DNA of 64,000 nucleotides from a virus. Within the stretch, counting starts at the first letter, position 1. Every line of letters starts with the position of its first letter. A program made the position numbers and the translations under genes. Where the stretch lies: the UHGV virus genome UHGV-1351772, one strand, 5' to 3'. The notes under the pieces were generated by a model. The model did not search any database, was not told where the DNA came from, and saw nothing but the letters and a program-made list of their open reading frames with translations. This document shows positions 11,193 through 62,200 of the stretch, piece after piece.

Positions 11193-12023
11193 TTATTTCG
11201 CCAGATCTGCTTCTTTTACAAAGATACCGTCGGCGTTCAGATAACCTTTACGGTCTTTGATTTCGTGCCAGGCCAAAGAGAAACAATGGCGAATGTTAAG
11301 ACGATAATAGAGAGCGAGTCGCGCAAGACGATGTAAAGCCCAACCTAACGTAACAGTACCCAGTTCAGTACGTAAGAACGCAGTAGCGAAGATTTCGGTA
11401 GCCTCTAAATACAACTGGTGTGGATATTTGGTATCGTTTAAACGTTCTTCAACGTCAGCGACATCATCTACCTGCAATTGTAAACCGCGTTCGATGACTT
11501 CAGCGGTTGTCATTCCGCCAGTCACTCTGTCCTTATCCAGTTCCAGGATGTTTACCAGAACCACCAACGCATCGCCGATGCCGTCCATGATCAGTTCAGG
11601 TTTGTTTTTGCTGATACCTGTTGCAATCTCACCAAATTCTTCATAGAACTTTGTGATTTGAGTTTCCAGTTTACCGTTGTCGAGAATACCACGTTCTTTA
11701 GACCAACCTTTAACACGTTCTACACAGTTTTCAATAGAGTAGACCGGAACAGATTCTGTATGCATTACCGTGCCGTTGTAAACAGCATCGGTAAGCTTAA
11801 TAGGCGCTACAATTGTTTCGATGTCCAGTTCTTGATTACCGGTGTGACGTTTACCTTCTACACGAATACGGTTGGTACCAGGGTTTACACCAATTGTGTA
11901 AATAGCATCGAACTGTACTGCATTCTCATTCAGAGCGCGCAGTTGTGCGTTAACTTCTTCCAGGTGCTGACCAGGATTAACCACGATGTTGTAAATAGTG
12001 TTGATGTCAAAACGTTCGCCCAT
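11193..12023 (-). CDS. Putative MazG-like all-alpha nucleoside triphosphate pyrophosphohydrolase
   Basis: 276 aa; EEFGE ... DGIGDALVVLVNILE resembles the EExxE...D motifs of the MazG/dimeric dUTPase-like family; GGAG SD upstream of ATG 12023. Confidence 0.45.
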   Translation of the reverse strand: MGERFDINTIYNIVVNPGQHLEEVNAQLRALNENAVQFDAIYTIGVNPGTNRIRVEGKRHTGNQELDIETIVAPIKLTDAVYNGTVMHTESVPVYSIENCVERVKGWSKERGILDNGKLETQITKFYEEFGEIATGISKNKPELIMDGIGDALVVLVNILELDKDRVTGGMTTAEVIERGLQLQVDDVADVEERLNDTKYPHQLYLEATEIFATAFLRTELGTVTLGWALHRLARLALYYRLNIRHCFSLAWHEIKDRKGYLNADGIFVKEADLAK

Positions 12024-12092: not shown

Positions 12093-12455
12093 TTAAATTT
12101 TGCAAGCCCCGCCTGAGCAGTTATCGTCTTCCGTGGTTGGATCAGCACCCTTCTCTACGGTAGCTTCCGGGTCTAACCCAGGGATTGCAAATTCGTCAGT
12201 TTCTTTAACGTTTTCTACTTTAACTTCTTCAGACATTTTAGTTCCCAAATTTCTTACAAAGGGGTTAACAGTTTTGATTTTAAGATTGGCAAATGGTGAT
12301 AGTAGCATTGCCAACCGTGGTAGACTTGGCGGTGCCTCTTTATATTGTACAACGCGCACCTTCGACCTACCAGGACCCTTACGTACACGGTTGTAGCCAA
12401 TAAAATATACAGTACCTGTAAAGTATCTAAGGCTGTGAAAGCGTGGTTTCTTCAT
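12093..12455 (-). CDS. Hypothetical small protein (120 aa from ATG 12455; alternative start 12236 gives 47 aa)
   Basis: AAGGAAG SD upstream of ATG 12455; basic N-terminal half, acidic C-terminal half ending CSGGACKI. Start uncertain. Confidence 0.35.
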   Translation of the reverse strand: MKKPRFHSLRYFTGTVYFIGYNRVRKGPGRSKVRVVQYKEAPPSLPRLAMLLSPFANLKIKTVNPFVRNLGTKMSEEVKVENVKETDEFAIPGLDPEATVEKGADPTTEDDNCSGGACKI

Positions 12456-13258: not shown

Positions 13259-14293
13259 TTAGACAGCTATGGGAGCTTTAATTGTGTCGTGCGATTGATA
13301 TCCAACCAATTCGAAGTCTTCGAATTTGTAATCGAAGATGGAATCAGGTTTACGTTTGATAACCAGTTTAGGTAGCGGGTAAGGTTCGCGAGTAAGTTGA
13401 AGTTTTGCCTGCTCCAGATGGTTAGAGTAAAGATGAACATCTACGCCACTATAAACCAACTCGTCTGGAACCATATTGAGTTGTTGAGCAATCATGTGAG
13501 TTAACAACGCGTAAGAAGCGACGTTAAACGGTGCGCCAAGTAGGTAATCGTTGCTCCGCATCATGTAAAAACACGAAAGTTTACGACGAGGGATACCTTC
13601 ACGATCTAAGGTTTCATGAAGTCGTTCTTCGTTATCGATATCTTCGTGGTTAATAAGCGGTGCGTTCGCAAACTTTTCCGGTTCGTTTACTTCGTACCAA
13701 TCCAGTCGTTCAAGCAACGTCATTTCTGTTGTGTAAAATTGGAAATAGTTGTGACATGGATTGAGTGCCATATCGTCCAGGTCACCTACATTCCAGGCAC
13801 TAACGATAATACGGCGGGAGTCAGGGTCTTCACGAAGTTGTTGGATAACTTTACTGATCTGGTCATGTGCTTTTTCATAAACCAAATACGTCGTACTATC
13901 TTCCTTCATATTCCCGATATACTTGTAACCCCGCTGCATTAGTTGTTGTGTACGTCTTACGTCATGACACTCCACAACTTTACAGTCGCGCCATTCCCGC
14001 CACTGGTGTCCGTAGACAGGACCTAAATTCCCTTCTTCATTCGCCCAAGCATCCCAGATTTTTACCCCGTTCTCTTGCAGGTACTTCACGTTAGTGTCAC
14101 CGTTTAAGAACCACAATAGTTCATGAATGATACTTTTCAGGTGAACCTTTTTCGTAGTAACTAATGGGAAACCTTCTTTCAGGTCAAAACGTAGTTGACG
14201 ACCAAATACAGAAAGTGTCCCTACACCTGTGCGGTCTTTCTTGACAACACCGTTATCCAGAATGTCTTGCATTAACGCTAAATACTGTTTCAT
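13259..14293 (-). CDS. thyA: Thymidylate synthase family enzyme (ThyA-like) with two ~40-aa insertions
   Basis: 344 aa; near-colinear with E. coli ThyA: [37 protein letters not shown] catalytic Cys, [20 protein letters not shown] (Asn of PFN retained), C-terminal KAPIAV. Extra segments after HQWREW and after FQFYTTEM. Confidence 0.9.
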
Positions 14294-14610
14294 TTGTTAT
14301 TATTCCCCATTCGTTTCGTTAAAATGTCTAAATTACGTTGCGCTTGCTCAGGACTAAAAATAATGTTTTCCTGGCTATACGTTACATGGAAATGTTTTTT
14401 GTTAACAATCTCAACCTTAAGGCCACGAACTTCGAATTGCCGTTTAGCCTCTTCAACCTTTTTTGGTGAGATTCTAAGAAGACCCGGAAATAGTTCGTCT
14501 GCAGGAACGTAGTATTTGATTTCCTTAGTTTCGGGAATTAATTCGATTCTATCTAAACTGACGCTTATAATCTCGTCAATCTTTTTCTTTATATTGTCGT
14601 TCACAGTCAT
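14290..14610 (-). CDS. Hypothetical protein, 106 aa
   Basis: ATGA start/stop overlap with thyA-like gene (translational coupling). Confidence 0.6.
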
Positions 14611-14918
14611 TAGATTTTGTCCTTTTCGAGTTCAGTTAAAATTTCAAATAGGTCTGCGTTGGACTGCAGTACGATTTCACTGCCTTCTGCTACAACGGTA
14701 ATTGAAGGCTTCTTACCACGTAGCAAGAACTCCCAACGCATTGTTCTTACGTGGCTGTCGAGTAACTGCTTTAATTTGTGGTTAACTTCGACTTCCAATT
14801 TGCCCAGTAACTGAGGTGTAATAGCTTCGCCTGAGTTTTTGTTATAAAGTGTACGCACTAAAGAACGTAAAGAATAACCAATGCACTGCGAAATTGCCCA
14901 ACCCGAATAGTTTTCCAT
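14610..14918 (-). CDS. Hypothetical protein, 102 aa
   Basis: AAGGA SD; TAATG overlap with downstream gene. Confidence 0.6.
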   Translation of the reverse strand: MENYSGWAISQCIGYSLRSLVRTLYNKNSGEAITPQLLGKLEVEVNHKLKQLLDSHVRTMRWEFLLRGKKPSITVVAEGSEIVLQSNADLFEILTELEKDKI

Positions 14919-14919
14919 G

Positions 14920-15465
14920 TTAATCCTTCAAAATGTCTTTAAGCTTTAGTTTTGTATAGAACGGAGAACTGCTTAGTTCTTCTGTCCAACTTATACGTCC
15001 GTTCTGTAGAACCCGGTCGAAGATTAGGCCGTTCATCTTTACAATTCTAGCCAACTGATAAAAGAGCGTCGTGAGGTGTAGTCGACGCTCCATTTGTGCG
15101 CGTGCGGTACAACTACGTACCGCTTTGATAGCAAGTACCGCTTCCGGCATCAACGTCACCGCGATTGTCTCAGGATGTTCGTTTTTCCATTTCTTAATGG
15201 CTAGTAGTCTGTGTAACGATTTTTCAAGGGGACGTAAATCCCCGTTATTCATCACGTAAACCAAAGCAGCAAGATCCCACAAGGCAATACCTACTGCTTT
15301 AGCAACAAACAGCCCGTCGTGTGTTGTCGTGGATTCACAGACTTTGCCAATACTTCCGTAAACACGTGCAGTCCATGCGTCTGTCTGTTCGCCAGGTTTT
15401 ATACCCGCGTTATCCAGAAAGTGTTTAAACGCATTAACGTGTTCAGTTAACTGTATTTGTTTCAT
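14920..15465 (-). CDS. Hypothetical protein, 181 aa
   Basis: ORF in co-directional array; weak SD. Confidence 0.55.
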   Translation of the reverse strand: MKQIQLTEHVNAFKHFLDNAGIKPGEQTDAWTARVYGSIGKVCESTTTHDGLFVAKAVGIALWDLAALVYVMNNGDLRPLEKSLHRLLAIKKWKNEHPETIAVTLMPEAVLAIKAVRSCTARAQMERRLHLTTLFYQLARIVKMNGLIFDRVLQNGRISWTEELSSSPFYTKLKLKDILKD

Positions 15466-28422: not shown

Positions 28423-28965
28423 TTATACTCCTTTAGGTTGACCGTATTTTGATGACAGGTAGATGAGCTCGGCATGGCAGATTTTCTCAACTAACCCGAG
28501 TGTTTCAAGGAAAATATCCCGGATACGGGACATTGTTTCGTTGGTAAGAATATCGCTCCAACACGTTGTGTCTATTATATCCGTCGTTGAAGATTGCCGC
28601 TGCAATATGGCGACATACACTTCGTCGAGGGTATCTGGAGCATTATTCTGTAAGTAATGCGCGGCATGTAGAAAGGCTTTCTCAAGAATCAGGTGAATAT
28701 CCGTATCGGGATCAGTTACCCGCACCAAATGTGGGTATGTCATGGCCGAATGGATTTTTCGCTCTAACTGTTCAATGAGATTATTCACCATCGCTTCTGA
28801 ATCCAGGATAGTAATTTCGACCCCACTGTGTTCTTCAGAAATCTTGTTCTCATGTACTGCTATCGCGTCGTGCAGTTCAAACGCAACGCGGCTACGCATC
28901 CCACTTAACAGTTTGTTTAATTTACCCCGTGACTCGCTGAGTGAGAAATCGATAAGTATTTTCAT
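28423..28965 (-). CDS. Hypothetical protein, 180 aa
   Basis: TAATG overlap with upstream gene. Confidence 0.55.
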   Translation of the reverse strand: MKILIDFSLSESRGKLNKLLSGMRSRVAFELHDAIAVHENKISEEHSGVEITILDSEAMVNNLIEQLERKIHSAMTYPHLVRVTDPDTDIHLILEKAFLHAAHYLQNNAPDTLDEVYVAILQRQSSTTDIIDTTCWSDILTNETMSRIRDIFLETLGLVEKICHAELIYLSSKYGQPKGV

Positions 28966-29708
28966 TATGCATATTCCTGATAAATTGCCCGACCCCGATC
29001 TTCTCGAATCTGGCAGTAAGTTACAACAGCACCATTAGGGATTTGTGCTCCGCTGTCTTCAAGGTAAATAACGCCCGTAGCTTCACAGAGATAAAACGAC
29101 CACAATCGTGAGATACCAAGCCGTGCGTTCTCGTAGTCACTGAATGGCCAGAAACCACAGTGAAGCTCAACATAGTCTCCACGTTCTATCCCGTAAGCAA
29201 TCAATTCTTTTTCCCACAACGTACATTCGGCGTCGTAAATCGAAAACCAGAAACCAACGAGGTTCTTTGTTTGTTTAACGTTGAGCAAGTCGTTATAAAT
29301 GGGGAAGAGTGCTTTATTGAAACTTTCTAACATCTCTGGAGAGAATAGAAAATTCATGTAGTATTCTAGCCATTGATAAACGGCCTCCCAGACATCTTCA
29401 GAAGAGAAATGTTCGAATACAGCGTCATCGCAATCGTAGTTATCGAAGATCCCTGAGAGATCTATTTCGACTACGCCGCGAAGGTCAAAGTTTCGGTTGG
29501 TATTGACAGCCTCGATAACTTCGGAGATGAGACGAGTAAAGACGATTGTGCAAGCCGTCTGTGCGGTATAAAAGAATTCTCCTTGTACGGTTGACCACTT
29601 CGGGTCCTTCAAGTGTTCATTGAAGTATTGTGGCCAAATTTTATAAAAGATTCCCTCGAACAACGAGGGATTGATACGTTGTAATTGAGGGACATAAACT
29701 TTTAGCAT
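28965..29708 (-). CDS. Hypothetical protein, 247 aa
   Basis: ATG 29708 with GGAG SD; GATAATATCT element 29-38 nt upstream. Confidence 0.55.
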   Translation of the reverse strand: MLKVYVPQLQRINPSLFEGIFYKIWPQYFNEHLKDPKWSTVQGEFFYTAQTACTIVFTRLISEVIEAVNTNRNFDLRGVVEIDLSGIFDNYDCDDAVFEHFSSEDVWEAVYQWLEYYMNFLFSPEMLESFNKALFPIYNDLLNVKQTKNLVGFWFSIYDAECTLWEKELIAYGIERGDYVELHCGFWPFSDYENARLGISRLWSFYLCEATGVIYLEDSGAQIPNGAVVTYCQIREDRGRAIYQEYA

Positions 29709-29736
29709 TTTAATAACTCCAATGGTGTTACACCTG

Positions 29737-29746
29737 GATAATATCT
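29737..29746. promoter_or_regulatory. GATAATATCT element (candidate promoter -10 region for gene starting at 29708)
   Basis: Exact 10-mer; same spacing to the minus-strand ATG as at 20621. Confidence 0.35.
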
Positions 29747-30413
29747 ATCTAAGAATATTTTTAGCGAAAAAAGGATCGACTGTAAACTCCCTCACCTGTG
29801 AGTCATAACCCGAATGTATCTGATCGCTACTGAGCAAATACCCGTCTAAATCGTGTGGAAGAATCCAAGAATCGCCTTGTTTAAAAATACCATAATCTGT
29901 TGTTCCAGAGGAAAAAACGATTTCCTCTGGAGACGAATAGATGTGGCGTAAGGCAAGATCTGACGGCTTTAACACGATTAATCGAACGGGATGTTGACTG
30001 ACTGCCTCTTTAATAAACTGTTCACGATTAAACCAAATTATTTTTTCGGGGTAAGTTTCGAATTCAGCCCATGTCCGCGTGATAACTAATTTGGAAATCT
30101 TTCTCAATTCTTCAGAATGCTCTGCGTAGCCGATACACTCCTTGCGCACTTCATGATTTTCTACCGATGCTGTGAATTTTTGGAATAGGTGTTGTTGGAA
30201 AAAGCCGTTCTCCGGGATATCACAACCCGCGTTGTATAGTGCAATGATCTCCCACAACAACGAAAGAGAAAACACAAATGCTAACTTTTCCACAACTTCC
30301 CAATCTTCGGAGTAAGGGGCTTTAAAGCCCCAATACTGCCGTGCGTTATACATAAAGTGAGTTTGTAAAAACCGAGGGGCTTTTGACAAGACCTCACTAT
30401 AAACGATCAGCAT
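29745..30413 (-). CDS. Hypothetical protein, 222 aa
   Basis: ORF in array; 7-nt overlap with upstream gene. Confidence 0.55.
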   Translation of the reverse strand: MLIVYSEVLSKAPRFLQTHFMYNARQYWGFKAPYSEDWEVVEKLAFVFSLSLLWEIIALYNAGCDIPENGFFQQHLFQKFTASVENHEVRKECIGYAEHSEELRKISKLVITRTWAEFETYPEKIIWFNREQFIKEAVSQHPVRLIVLKPSDLALRHIYSSPEEIVFSSGTTDYGIFKQGDSWILPHDLDGYLLSSDQIHSGYDSQVREFTVDPFFAKNILR

Positions 30414-31927
30414 TCAAGCTCCTTATCCGTCAATATTCGTTTGTTTGAATAATAGCCGCACCACAACCCATGATATTTTTCCCCAATATAAACCAACGCG
30501 TACTCGATATACTGCCGTTCTGGACGCCGTACCGCCACGTAGAATCGTCCTTCTGGTTCTTTCATACGGTTGATTTCCGTACGCGTCGGTATGTCGATAC
30601 CACGAGTAAGGATAGTTTTAACCTTGTTTTTACTACCAGGGATATGGATGGTTACGTCAAAACCTTTATCTACGTTACGATAAAAATCTTTCTTCGGCTT
30701 ACCTTTCTCATCGTAAAGCAGGTCAGTAATGTCGTTCATCACGACTGAGTTTTTCCCTTCCATGGCATCGCGTAACCAACCTGCAAGCTCATCACGAATC
30801 GTAATGCAGCGATAAGACAATAACGCGGGACGAAGAATTCGTGTAATCGAAAGATCTTCAAACATCCATAGGTTTTTGTCTTCGCTAAAATGCATCCGAT
30901 CGACAGGAATACCGTTACCTGCGGCTTCTGCGAACTTCTTACGTTTTACGAATAAGTTAAAAACAACGGCGATGGGATCAAACTGACGTAAACGGGGCAC
31001 CCCTTCCCACGCTTTCGCAGAGTGGGTATTTACCAACTCGTATACGTTGTTCCATGGTTCTTTGGTAAACATTACGCAGAATTGCGCGTCTGGAATGTAC
31101 TTACCAACGAAGACGATATCGTCCTTCTGTTTTGCATGGTTCCCACCGAACATGTAATAAAGTTTATTACCGTTAACTGTAACAGTGGGATGCGGTTCGT
31201 TCACCATCGGGTAACAGAACTTCGTAACACAGATATCGGGAAAAGCAGACAAATTGACGCCTTCACCAACAACTTCTGGTTGCTGATCTTCCTCAGGCAT
31301 CTCGTCTTTTGACCAATACGGTGTATAGTCTAGCCCATCGCCTCGTGCCGAGATACTTGAACCCTTCCGTGCTAACTCGTCGGCACGCTCGTTTCCATAA
31401 CGTCCTGAATGCCCTTTAATTTTAAGGACACGAACACCTTTCCCTTCTTTCTTTAACCGCTGTTTAACCTCCCACATCCGTTGGATTAATTCCAAGTTCG
31501 CAATGGGCGTACCGTCTGCGCGACGCCAACCGCGTGCAGCCCAACCATCAATCCAATCGTTATACGTGTTGACAACGTAAGATGCGTCGATATAGATAAC
31601 ATAGTTTTTAGCAACGAAAGGTGCATGTTCGAAAACGGTCAGGAAAGCCACGAGTTCTGCAACGTCGGAGTGTGACATTTTTGGTACAGGCACAACACCG
31701 TCAATAAACTCCACAGCTTCTGGTAAAGATGGAAGTTTTTCATCCTTGTTTATCTGGCGGTATCCTGACGTCGTAATCCCCTCGGGAATAGAGGGATGGC
31801 GGTAAACCCGACCATCCTCAATCGTTTCACGATTAAATAAGTATCCATGAATCCCCGCTCCTGTACCGAGCGGGGAGGTCAAATGGCTACCATCCGTGTA
31901 AATTACTGCAACATCAACGTTCTTCAT
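30407..31927 (-). CDS. RNase HI domain fused to a ~310-aa C-terminal domain of unknown function
   Basis: 506 aa; N-terminal VAVIYTDGSHL..GTGAGIHGY, SDVAELVAF, IDASYVVNTYNDWIDGWAARGWRRADGTPIANLELIQR, KGHSGRYGNERADELARKG match the RNase HI DEDD plus His catalytic set and surrounding motifs. Confidence 0.85.
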   Translation of the reverse strand: MKNVDVAVIYTDGSHLTSPLGTGAGIHGYLFNRETIEDGRVYRHPSIPEGITTSGYRQINKDEKLPSLPEAVEFIDGVVPVPKMSHSDVAELVAFLTVFEHAPFVAKNYVIYIDASYVVNTYNDWIDGWAARGWRRADGTPIANLELIQRMWEVKQRLKKEGKGVRVLKIKGHSGRYGNERADELARKGSSISARGDGLDYTPYWSKDEMPEEDQQPEVVGEGVNLSAFPDICVTKFCYPMVNEPHPTVTVNGNKLYYMFGGNHAKQKDDIVFVGKYIPDAQFCVMFTKEPWNNVYELVNTHSAKAWEGVPRLRQFDPIAVVFNLFVKRKKFAEAAGNGIPVDRMHFSEDKNLWMFEDLSITRILRPALLSYRCITIRDELAGWLRDAMEGKNSVVMNDITDLLYDEKGKPKKDFYRNVDKGFDVTIHIPGSKNKVKTILTRGIDIPTRTEINRMKEPEGRFYVAVRRPERQYIEYALVYIGEKYHGLWCGYYSNKRILTDKELEC

Positions 31928-59292: not shown

Positions 59293-62200
59293 ATGAAAGC
59301 GTATCCTTACGATCCTCGGGGGACGAAAGCCGAGAATCACTTCTTAGAGGAGCGTATCATCGGGTCAGAGAACAACAACGATCGGGTGGTGATTTTAGAC
59401 CACCGCCCGTTCTTTGAAGATTTGGTCGTCAGACAACCAGGTTCAACCACCCCACTGAGTCGTGGGGTGGACTACGAACTGCAATATCAGCTGACGGAAC
59501 TGGATGACTCGGTAGCAGCCAACGTGTATTGTGGGGTACACCTTATCAACCCATCCATCAAGGGTATCGTAACCTTTGAAGGACAAATGCTCGGCGGTAC
59601 GTTCTACGACCCGTTTGTTGATATTCTCGATGAACTGGTGAAATATTTGAATAACCCAGTCAGTGCTGACTGGCTGTTATTAGACGGTAGACCATCGTTA
59701 TATCCAGCGACGCCAGCAGCAACGTCCTGGGCGGATTTGCTGAACAAAAAATATTTAGCGTCGGCAGTTCACGATATTGAATTGAAAACCGACGACGCTA
59801 ACCAGCTAATTAAAGACAAATTAGCTGAAGTTAAAGCGTTAGTGACTGCGTTGGGTAAAGAAATCGAAGCATTTAACTACCCGGCACATATCGCAGCGAA
59901 GAACCCGCACGAAACCACATCCGCGCAGATTAACGCGCATCCTGTTAACTTGAAAACACCCGACACCTTTATGGCGTACGGGTTAAAGTTGAAAGCACTG
60001 ACGGATGAGCTGAAAGCGTTTCGTTTACCGCAGTCGGTTATCGATACGTATATCTCTCACTGGATTTCTTCGGAAGTGCGGGGCGTGTTTAACTGTACGG
60101 TGTCAGGAAACCGCGCACAGTTCCGTTCGAAAAACGGTGAGTCCGAAATCATTTTTGCCAACGATGGTTTTACGTTAAAATCCAACGGTTCTGTGGTGTT
60201 AGCGGTAGGGCATCTGGAAGGCACAGGTGCAGGACGCTATATCAACTGGCGTGCCGGTAAAAACACATTACGCATCGAGTCAACAGGCGATGCTTTAGGG
60301 ATGAACAAACTCACCCTGAACGGTAACCCGTTACTGACTACCACGGCGTTGATGGAATACCAACAAGATCCAGATGCGGGTTCTGGTGGCGGTGGCGACC
60401 CTGATGACTCGAAGGTGTACATTGAAGGTCGTAATGGGATTAGCTTTACCGGTAAAGGTTCTCGCGCCGACCCTATCGTGGGGACTATCGACCCAACAAA
60501 AGCGACAACCGCCGAAAAAGGCGTCGCTAAACTTAAAACAGGTAAAGGTACAGAAACGACTGGGGTTGCTGCAACACCGGCTTCGTTAGCACCATACTCG
60601 ACTGACCTATCGGGGTATGTGGCTAAAACGACCATGATTAACGGTAAGCCGATGAATGACGGCTCCAGGACAATCACGAAAGCTGATCTGGGGTTAGGGC
60701 AAGCGGATAACACCGCAGACGTTGACAAGCCGTTGTCTACCGAGTTAAATACGGCGCTTAGTGGTTTAGCGGATGCGGGTCACCACCACGATTGGTCGGA
60801 ACTAGGCATTTATAAAGCCTCGCAAACCGTTTACGGTATCGGTCGTTACGCAACTAACCAGAACGGTTTGGTTGAAAACCGTGCTGTGGTGCCGAACATC
60901 TTAAAAGAACTTTCGGCGCGATTAGATGTGGTTGCTGCGGCAATTGCAAACGCGAAAGAAGGATCGGTAACGGATTTCGCTGCGGTAAAAGGCGCAGACT
61001 GGCGCTTTAATAGTCAGGGTACGGCAATTTCCGTTCAGGATTTGAAATATTTTTATTTGCTGAACGGTACGAAAGCTGATAGCACCGTTACTGGAGCGAT
61101 TGACCTGCAAACTACCCCGATGTTTAACTGGTTCTCGCCGAACAACCAAATTGAGACGACGTGGCCTACGGGGAAAGTGAGCGCTGGTAAGGGTATTAAC
61201 TGGACAGGTATTGAAGAACCGCCACTAATGGGTTTCCAATCTGTTCCTGTAGGTAAAACTGCCTCACAGATGGGTGACCAGTCAGTTGTTACTGTGTTGG
61301 CAAAAACACGGGTAAGGGCACGCCAGTCGAAGCTTTGGGTTTATGCCGCAGGGGGTGGTCCGGTTACAGTTTACATTAACGGTATCCAGGCAGCCACAGG
61401 CCAGTCTCCACTCGTTGCAGTGTACGAAACATCAGCAGACGTTGAAAACTACACCGTAGCGGTTAAAGCTGAGTGTAGCGACACGGCTAAATCCGCAGCG
61501 GTGCAATTCGAAATTTACGACGGTGACTACCCCGTTTATTTCAGTGGCCCTGAAACGCACGTAGAGCTTCTCCAAGAGTTTGTTACAACACACGTAGGCA
61601 TTCGTCATTATCTGTACGTTAACATGCTCACAGGCTCTCTGTATTCGCGTACTGAGCCAATTCAGAGTATTGCAGTTGACCCTGAGCGCGGTTATATCGG
61701 CTACGTTGATATTGTTGCCGGTGAATCTTACTCGAATAAAACCGTGAGTTTTGAAACCACGTTTGATTTCGGGAAAAGTACCGAGGTTAGTGAGCACATC
61801 GACGCTCGTAAAGCACACGGACTCAGTTCTGTAGACTGGACGTTAACGGATAACCCACGGTTGCCGTTATTAAATCGTGCGATTGCTGAACCGAGAACGT
61901 GTATTTTTAGAAAAGCGTTAACGGCCGGTACTGGTGATGTTTTTCATCTGGTAAGTCGTGGTCTTTATACCTACGCACACAACCAAAACGTGAAGTCCAG
62001 TCTTCAATACGTTGTGATACCTGAGGGTGCTACACCGTATTGCTGGTTTACACCGTTTAACCCGAAAGAAAACAACGCGCCGACGTTCGAAGGTTCGTTT
62101 GCGTTCGACGTTGACGATGTCGGTGGAACACAAGCGCTCACGGCTGCACCGGATTTGGTGCTGTGTACGTCAACACAAGGTAGCAGCGTTAAACGTCGTT

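Follow-up and report, generated by a model that had tools for sequence, protein, structure and literature searches.

The thyA gene described here most probably encodes a bona fide thymidylate synthase of an insertion-bearing subfamily found in large phages, a reading to which we assign a probability of about 85%. The window, that is the whole stretch of DNA analysed, comprises 64,000 nucleotides of virus genome UHGV-1351772. In the proposed reaction dUMP would undergo reductive methylation to dTMP with 5,10-methylene-tetrahydrofolate, dihydrofolate being released, and ThyA acting together with a phage dihydrofolate reductase (DHFR) would provide a jumbo phage of about 222 kb, related to SPN3US and Goslar, with its own supply of dTMP. 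Two extra segments would be ancient surface modules, each able to occur without the other, by which a widespread ThyA subfamily is defined, and neither of them replaces a catalytic residue. Insertion 1 would be the same small α/β module as in the crystal structure of Burkholderia thailandensis ThyA, and insertion 2 a helical arm projecting from the tip of the hairpin that bears the catalytic cysteine on one strand and Arg-Ser-x-Asp on the other.

Sequence, fold and catalytic residues

The features discussed are listed below, all on the minus strand.

13259..14293, minus: thyA coding sequence, 344 aa plus stop, ATG start, begins MKQYL
13868..13987, minus: insertion 1, residues 103-142, a small β-α-β-β module replacing the 103-108 loop of E. 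coli ThyA
13754..13756, minus: codon of the catalytic Cys180 (P-C-H motif), corresponding to E. coli Cys146, an invariant column in alignments
13586..13726, minus: insertion 2, residues 190-236, a four-helix excursion at the β-hairpin tip, replacing E. coli Asp156
13544..13570, minus: FYMMRSNDY, residues 242-250, interface and active-site strand with Met245 (E. coli Gln165), Arg246, Ser247, Asn248 (E. coli Cys168) and Asp249
13523..13525, minus: codon of Asn257 (P-F-N motif), corresponding to E. coli Asn177, the dUMP-selecting residue
11193..12023, minus: MazG-like pyrophosphohydrolase, 276 aa (phrog_7855, E 1.1e-74), downstream of thyA

The Pfam profile PF00303 spans the full product (profile positions 1-266 of 266, 367.3 bits against a cut-off of 24.3, E 4.7e-110), and the cut-offs of the NCBIfam thymidylate synthase equivalogs are exceeded (NF002499, 414.1 versus 405; NF002497, 396.7 versus 327; TIGR03284, 341.3 versus 108.35). 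Alignment with PDB structures using phmmer places the phage enzyme on E. coli ThyA in three collinear blocks, residues 1-102 matching 1-102, 143-189 matching 109-155 and 237-344 matching 157-264. The lengths are consistent, the 264 residues of E. coli ThyA plus 80 giving 344. An AlphaFold2 model calculated from a 50-sequence alignment has a pLDDT of 95.3 and a pTM of 0.93, and superposition of its core on E. coli thymidylate synthase with Foldseek gives a TM-score of 0.96, normalised to the target, as befits a ThyA fold.

E. coli ThyA (264 aa; PDB codes 2tsc, 1tys and 1aiq, among others) shares with the phage enzyme the fold, the catalytic and substrate-binding residues and the C-terminal tail, with approximately 65% identity over the shared 257-264 residues outside the two extra segments. 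Using E. coli numbering, Glu58, Trp80, Trp83, Tyr94, Cys146, His147, Arg166, Ser167, Asp169, Asn177, His207 and Tyr209 are all retained. The phosphate-binding arginines (Arg21, Arg126′, Arg127′ and Arg166 in E. coli; Arg21, Arg160, Arg161 and Arg246 in the phage enzyme) are invariant, as is the Cys180-His181 pair. The C-terminus, KAPIAV, is an intact version of the A-P-(V/I)-A-(V/I) tail that closes the active site. The original prediction had identified a ThyA-family enzyme with the cysteine of PCH and the asparagine of PFN; both are present, as Cys180 and Asn257, in the alignment with E. coli ThyA. The enzymes differ in that the E. coli protein lacks both insertions, having a six-residue loop at 103-108 and a tight hairpin turn at 155-158, and in the replacement of Gln165 and Cys168 by Met and Asn. 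Among the key ThyA residues compared these are the only two positions that differ, and both vary across the family.

Phage lineage and relatives

Over its whole length the product shares 58-64% identity with the ThyAs of SPN3US, the SPFM phages, Goslar, Asesino, phiEaH2, Caitlin and Machina, all jumbo phages of about 240 kb, and the genes around thyA are syntenic with those of SPN3US/Goslar-type jumbo phages. A megablast search of the phage collection with 5 kb around thyA returned only a 228-bp match to thyA itself, with no close DNA relative among deposited phages. Dozens of assemblies of Salmonella, Shigella and E. coli contain ThyAs of 94-99% identity, each 344 aa long, the contigs reaching about 226 kb. 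The window is approximately 86% identical to NZ_CP173450.1, a circular 'plasmid' of 221,873 bp from E. coli 98232 (human urine, Egypt), hereafter the sister genome, and to NZ_CP134650.1, a 222,441-bp 'plasmid' of Enterobacter ludwigii (gull). These matches indicate that the window is part of a jumbo phage of about 222 kb that has been deposited in the form of circular 'plasmids' in complete bacterial genomes. Seoul-like and Goslar-like jumbo phages that encode chimallin and persist in bacterial isolates have already been described (preprint 10.1101/2024.12.31.630880), and the present phage fits these 'persistent virulent jumbo phages'.

The sister genome also encodes a MazG-like protein. Elsewhere in it, at 28603-30724, 61340-62155 and 169521-170072, we note a pair of neighbouring radical SAM proteins together with a DNA adenine methylase and an NT5C-type 5′-nucleotidase.

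Insertion 1

Two large insertions had been proposed from the sequence, of about 37 and 40 residues. They are real, and the estimates were roughly right when set against the net gains of 34 and 46 residues given by the phmmer blocks. In the first, 40 residues take the place of the six-residue 103-108 loop of E. coli ThyA, a net increase of 34. The AlphaFold2 model forms a β-α-β-β arrangement here, with elements at 101-108, 112-120, 124-131 and 134-143. The segment aligns without gaps, and also in three dimensions, with an insertion in B. thailandensis ThyA (PDB code 3v8h). The phage ThyA has the α/β insertion of about 34 residues following Q-W-R-x-W that is a Burkholderia-type feature.

The Burkholderia protein, of the NF010393 type and cellular rather than phage in origin, has in common with the phage enzyme both insertion 1 and a hydrophobic residue at 165 paired with Asn at 168. 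It lacks insertion 2, the hairpin being just slightly longer (PNVERREIS), and overall identity is 39%. The phage enzyme scores below the NF010393 cut-off (233.5 versus 576 bits), and so shares the module whilst lying outside that orthologous group.

Insertion 2

The second insertion places 47 residues where E. coli ThyA has residue 156, a net increase of 46 by phmmer. In the AlphaFold2 model it makes the hairpin strands longer and contributes four short helices, with low confidence only at residues 211-220. The strands, residues 181-190 (10 residues) and 237-249 (13 residues), carry Cys180 and Arg246, respectively. This geometry corrects two points of the original prediction. The insertion had been described as directly preceding R-S-x-D, but nine β-strand residues (KLSCFYMM-R) intervene; and it had been placed near the active site, whereas it sits at the far tip of the hairpin, roughly 30 Å from Cys180 and Arg246 of the same subunit as estimated from the strand lengths in the model. 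The tip presumably lies near Arg126 and Arg127, which reach into the active site of the partner subunit.

No counterpart of insertion 2 was found among PDB sequences or PDB structures. It recurs in an independent predicted structure, that of the ThyA from phage 201phi2-1, which covers 92% of the query model. This protein (B3FJL1), at 457 aa, has further additions beyond both insertions.

A large surface insertion is compatible with normal chemistry, since the long ThyA of the Lactobacillus casei type (316 aa) has an insertion of about 50 aa in the small domain and is fully active. That insertion is located elsewhere, before the GDLGPVYG segment (approximately residues 60-90 of the E. coli enzyme); in the intervals equivalent to 60-88 and 88-98 the phage enzyme has no extra residues.

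Distribution and possible role of the insertions

Both insertions occur at the same positions in all six of the jumbo-phage ThyAs aligned, their sequences being poorly conserved beyond a few anchor residues; the ThyAs of SPN3US, Goslar, Asesino, Machina and phiEaH2 carry the two together. These proteins (SPN3US gp229, Goslar gp141, Asesino gp251, Machina gp242 and those of phiEaH2 and 201phi2-1), from nucleus-forming jumbo phages, are all annotated simply as thymidylate synthase. A search of 1.84 billion cluster representatives gave 5,199 relatives at E ≤ 1e-30, and the best 150 of these, representatives of clusters at 50% identity, were mapped onto E. coli ThyA. Both insertions are present in 72 of the best 150, insertion 2 alone in 40, insertion 1 alone in 20 and neither in 18, although we caution that the ranking favours sequences resembling the query and the proportions are not population frequencies. 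Across the representatives site 1 holds 16-272 aa and site 2 holds 25-90 aa; a further 51 carry a third insertion, at E. coli positions 60-88. Insertion 2 is homologous across the representatives, opening with the conserved anchor T.E(L/M)(S/T)..ER and closing with (L)D...(I/V)P.R.LSC. The modules accordingly look widespread and separable, and, judging from their distribution, both would be much older than the phage that carries them here and shared by many large-phage ThyAs. On the host side, Enterobacteriaceae ThyA has 264 aa and no insertions, yet the ThyAs of other phages commonly have them, and Burkholderia ThyA has insertion 1.

Very long insertions at site 1, of 250-272 aa, are seen in about a dozen distant metagenomic ThyAs (P0129, P0140, P0142, P0144, P0150, P0158, P0169, P0182, P0190, P0199, P0232, P0243 and P0250), and other distant representatives have about 200 aa inserted at positions 60-88. 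A Pfam scan of the long insertions detected no domain, apart from one sub-threshold match at site 1 to a NUMOD-like domain of homing endonucleases. These long segments could be inteins, endonuclease remnants or an inserted domain of a kind not yet recognised.

What might the insertions do? They may add an interaction surface, as the original prediction suggested; their likeliest role would be extra contacts, within the dimer or with partner proteins, leaving the chemistry unchanged. A tentative and on balance unlikely possibility is that insertion 2, a conserved helical arm with ER...P.R anchor residues beside the strand of the dimer interface, is a dedicated protein-protein element of large-phage ThyAs, or else an arm that tunes the phosphate-binding site of the partner subunit or a block on the formation of mixed dimers with host ThyA. 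As a protein-protein element it would dock partners in dNTP supply (DHFR, ribonucleotide reductase, the MazG-like protein, kinases) into a phage-specific complex. If so, one of the most intensively studied enzymes would carry a module for regulation or assembly that has so far escaped characterisation. A role in nuclear import is weakly disfavoured by a published thymidylate synthase fusion, which was perhaps not made with the phage's own insertion-bearing enzyme. In the literature surveyed we found no description of the insertion 2 module, whether of structure or function.

ThyA serves as a model enzyme and has been a classic target for drugs. A large, mostly phage-borne subfamily with a conserved module of about 40-47 residues at the tip of the hairpin that leads into the dimer-interface strand, under purifying selection at least as strong as that on the catalytic core, could inform on communication between subunits or on the way in which phages arrange their dNTP synthesis. 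The question is a modest one, of interest to specialists.

The strand carrying Arg-Ser-x-Asp

The replacement of Gln by Met in FYMMRSNDY had been spotted in the sequence, and alignment bears this out with Met245 at the position of E. coli Gln165. Methionine is fixed here in all 120 close relatives. Within the wider clade Met245 and Asn248 are specific to this lineage, the corresponding segments being QLYQRSAD in SPN3US and the Erwinia phages and MLLARSQD in Goslar. The strand thus differs from that of SPN3US, and the surroundings of the active site are somewhat diverged in this lineage, a point that counts against a canonical enzyme.

The two positions vary together. Of the 99 representatives with Gln165, 96 are non-polar at 168; where 165 is not Gln, position 168 is Asn, Ser, Thr or Gln in 35 of 48 (Fisher p ~1e-19, a value that overstates independence as the sequences are related). 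In 3v8h the segment reads LYIRSNDVG, placing I-R-S-N-D at positions 165-169. By this sequence covariation the change from Gln165 to Met appears as one half of a recurrent pair, hydrophobic at 165 with Asn, Ser or Thr at 168. The coupling suggests that the hydrogen-bonding group has simply moved, and Met245/Asn248 looks like a compensated relocation of the hydrogen-bonding side chain with dUMP selectivity kept.

Evidence on the reaction

The sister genome has an annotated DHFR at 97030-97566, in a region outside the 64-kb window. This argues for a reductive ThyA, since the presence of DHFR implies that dihydrofolate is produced and a hydroxymethylase makes none. A distant insertion-bearing ThyA adjoins DHFR on a 370-kb phage-like contig, and another, on a 127-kb phage-like contig, adjoins the large and small subunits of ribonucleotide reductase and a gene of the MazG superfamily. 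SPN3US-like genomes carry DHFR, thymidylate synthase and thymidylate kinase (PMC6614189), and DHFR and thymidylate synthase co-occur across jumbo phages (PMC7824862).

Aspartate in place of E. coli Asn177, the mark of dCMP hydroxymethylases, is not seen, Asn257 occupying that position in P-F-N. T4 dCMP hydroxymethylase (PDB code 6l18) and the CMP hydroxymethylase MilA (5jnh) have the superfamily fold in common with the phage enzyme, but neither in sequence nor in structure is it closer to known hydroxymethylases, which are far more distant, than to ThyA. Genes for hypermodification (5-hmdU DNA kinase, aGPT-Pplase, glycosyltransferases, a dedicated dNMP kinase) are not annotated among the 225 features of the sister genome, and none was detected with Pfam or PHROGs among the 30 larger window ORFs scanned, most of which gave no match of any kind.

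The literature yielded nothing specific on insertions in phage ThyA, on Gln217/Asn229 or on DNA modification in SPN3US or Goslar, and no biochemical characterisation of any insertion-bearing jumbo-phage ThyA. A paper on ThyA of the Vibrio 'VAAP clade' (PMC6005164) deals with other substitutions and is not relevant.

Alternative readings

Phage homologues of ThyA that act as dUMP hydroxymethylases are established, and the original prediction had taken the insertions as possible hints of such a change in reaction and of thymidine hypermodification. The product would then be 5-hydroxymethyl-dUMP, with tetrahydrofolate, and would start a hypermodification pathway, the insertions shifting the positioning of folate or the access of water and the MazG-like protein removing dTTP or dUTP. 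The synteny of the MazG-like gene with thyA, the NT5C-type nucleotidase and two radical SAM genes of the sister genome and the large share of uncharacterised ORFs leave some room for this. We nevertheless regard it as very unlikely, given a core so close to E. coli ThyA, the intact tail and full set of residues for hydride transfer and closure of the active site, scores above curated equivalog cut-offs, much more distant hydroxymethylases, DHFR both in the sister genome and beside a distant insertion-bearing ThyA, and the failure to find a hypermodification enzyme either in the sister-genome annotation or in the scanned window ORFs. The supposed hints also lose their force because the insertions are clade-wide and older than the phage, and insertion 1 together with the hydrophobic-165/Asn-168 pair is present in the cellular enzyme 3v8h. 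A different consequence of losing Gln165 has to be weighed as well. This residue helps to fix the orientation of Asn177, and without it the carboxamide might flip and allow dCMP to be accepted, giving a dCMP methylase, or an enzyme of dual specificity, that makes 5-methyl-dCMP. Fixation of the replacement in 120 of 120 close relatives and the alanine of Goslar at the same position would fit, but Asn257 is kept rather than changed to Asp, polar residues at 168 accompany hydrophobic ones at 165 as described, I-R-S-N-D is found in a solved Burkholderia enzyme deposited as a thymidylate synthase, and SPN3US and the Erwinia phages of the same clade retain Gln. An altered base specificity is accordingly extremely unlikely in our estimation. 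With both surface modules recurring in many large-phage forms of the enzyme, the gene provides no evidence for unusual DNA chemistry, and a false lead is removed in that the insertions and the Gln-to-Met change would mark neither a new reaction nor a hypermodification pathway.

The extra segments might, on yet another reading, have no function at all, being neutral or selfish in-frame DNA (remnants of an intein, intron or mobile element) tolerated at permissive surface loops. That three loop positions are hot spots for insertions of very variable length, and that one very long site-1 insertion weakly resembles a NUMOD-like domain below threshold, is what such an origin would lead one to expect. 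Against this, in comparison with the 86%-identical copy dN/dS is 0.082 in the core, much the same in insertion 1 (0.083) and lower in insertion 2 (0.021), and among 120 close relatives, all of 344 aa, the insertions are as conserved in identity as the core. The low dN/dS and core-like conservation imply that the segments are maintained as protein. Their folds are predicted with confidence, and the structures are shared with proteins as distant as 201phi2-1 ThyA and 3v8h. Inteins are at least about 130 aa long, have a nucleophile as first residue, end in His-Asn and are followed by Cys, Ser or Thr; 40 and 47 aa is far too short, and by eye the splice-junction residues are absent. We judge functionless DNA to be scarcely credible as an explanation, and favour protein modules on a conventional thymidylate synthase. 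An intron, an intein or a sequencing artefact in the gene itself was considered and rejected, as the frame is continuous, the length is 344 aa in 120 relatives and dN/dS is low.

Neighbouring genes

A MazG-like gene 1.2 kb from thyA had been noted in the sequence, and it is found at 11193..12023 with a match to phrog_7855. The product falls under the Pfam MazG cut-off (19.9 bits versus 22), and the arrangement of thyA followed by mazG is also annotated in Asesino and Machina. In the N-terminal 90 or so residues, ahead of the MazG domain (approximately 96-275), there is by eye an apparent internal repeat, ..INTIYNIVVNPGQ.. and ..FDAIYTIGVNPGT...

Upstream of thyA two adjacent ORFs on the minus strand, 14920-15465 and 14610-14918 (181 and 102 aa), are split by a stop codon and one base. 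The 181- and 102-aa products match consecutive parts of phrog_10269, positions 30-163 and 201-298 of 299, and the MazG-like protein also matches the start of this family. The E. coli 98232 element shows this split in its annotation too, whereas SPN3US has a single gene of 289 aa there. The pair may reflect a gene split that has become fixed or one gene broken by a frameshift, and it possibly encodes a second MazG-like protein flanking thyA.

Between thyA and mazG, at 12093-12236 on the minus strand, lies an ORF for a conserved acidic protein of about 47 aa that ends ...EDDNCSGGACKI*. It is assigned to unknown function in PHROGs and has syntenic ORFs at L001:9108-9296, L003:5878-6033, L004:5924-6088 and L005:5331-5486. 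The tail keeps the pattern DD(N/G)C(S/A/T)GGACKI* throughout SPN3US, Asesino, Machina, phiEaH2 and the E. coli 98232 element. The tail of the E. coli ribonucleotide reductase subunit NrdA, ..DDGCESGACKI, has nearly the same sequence. The Cys-x4-Cys-x-x-end geometry is that of the redox-active C-terminus of E. coli class Ia NrdA, in which the cysteines are residues 754 and 759 of 761 (PMC4728125). A phmmer search of the PDB with the peptide gave no match to NrdA, the motif being too short for such a search, and no ribonucleotide reductase is annotated in the sister genome. The small protein could imitate the NrdA tail as a separate polypeptide and serve the thioredoxin or glutaredoxin that acts on the host ribonucleotide reductase as a decoy or shuttle.
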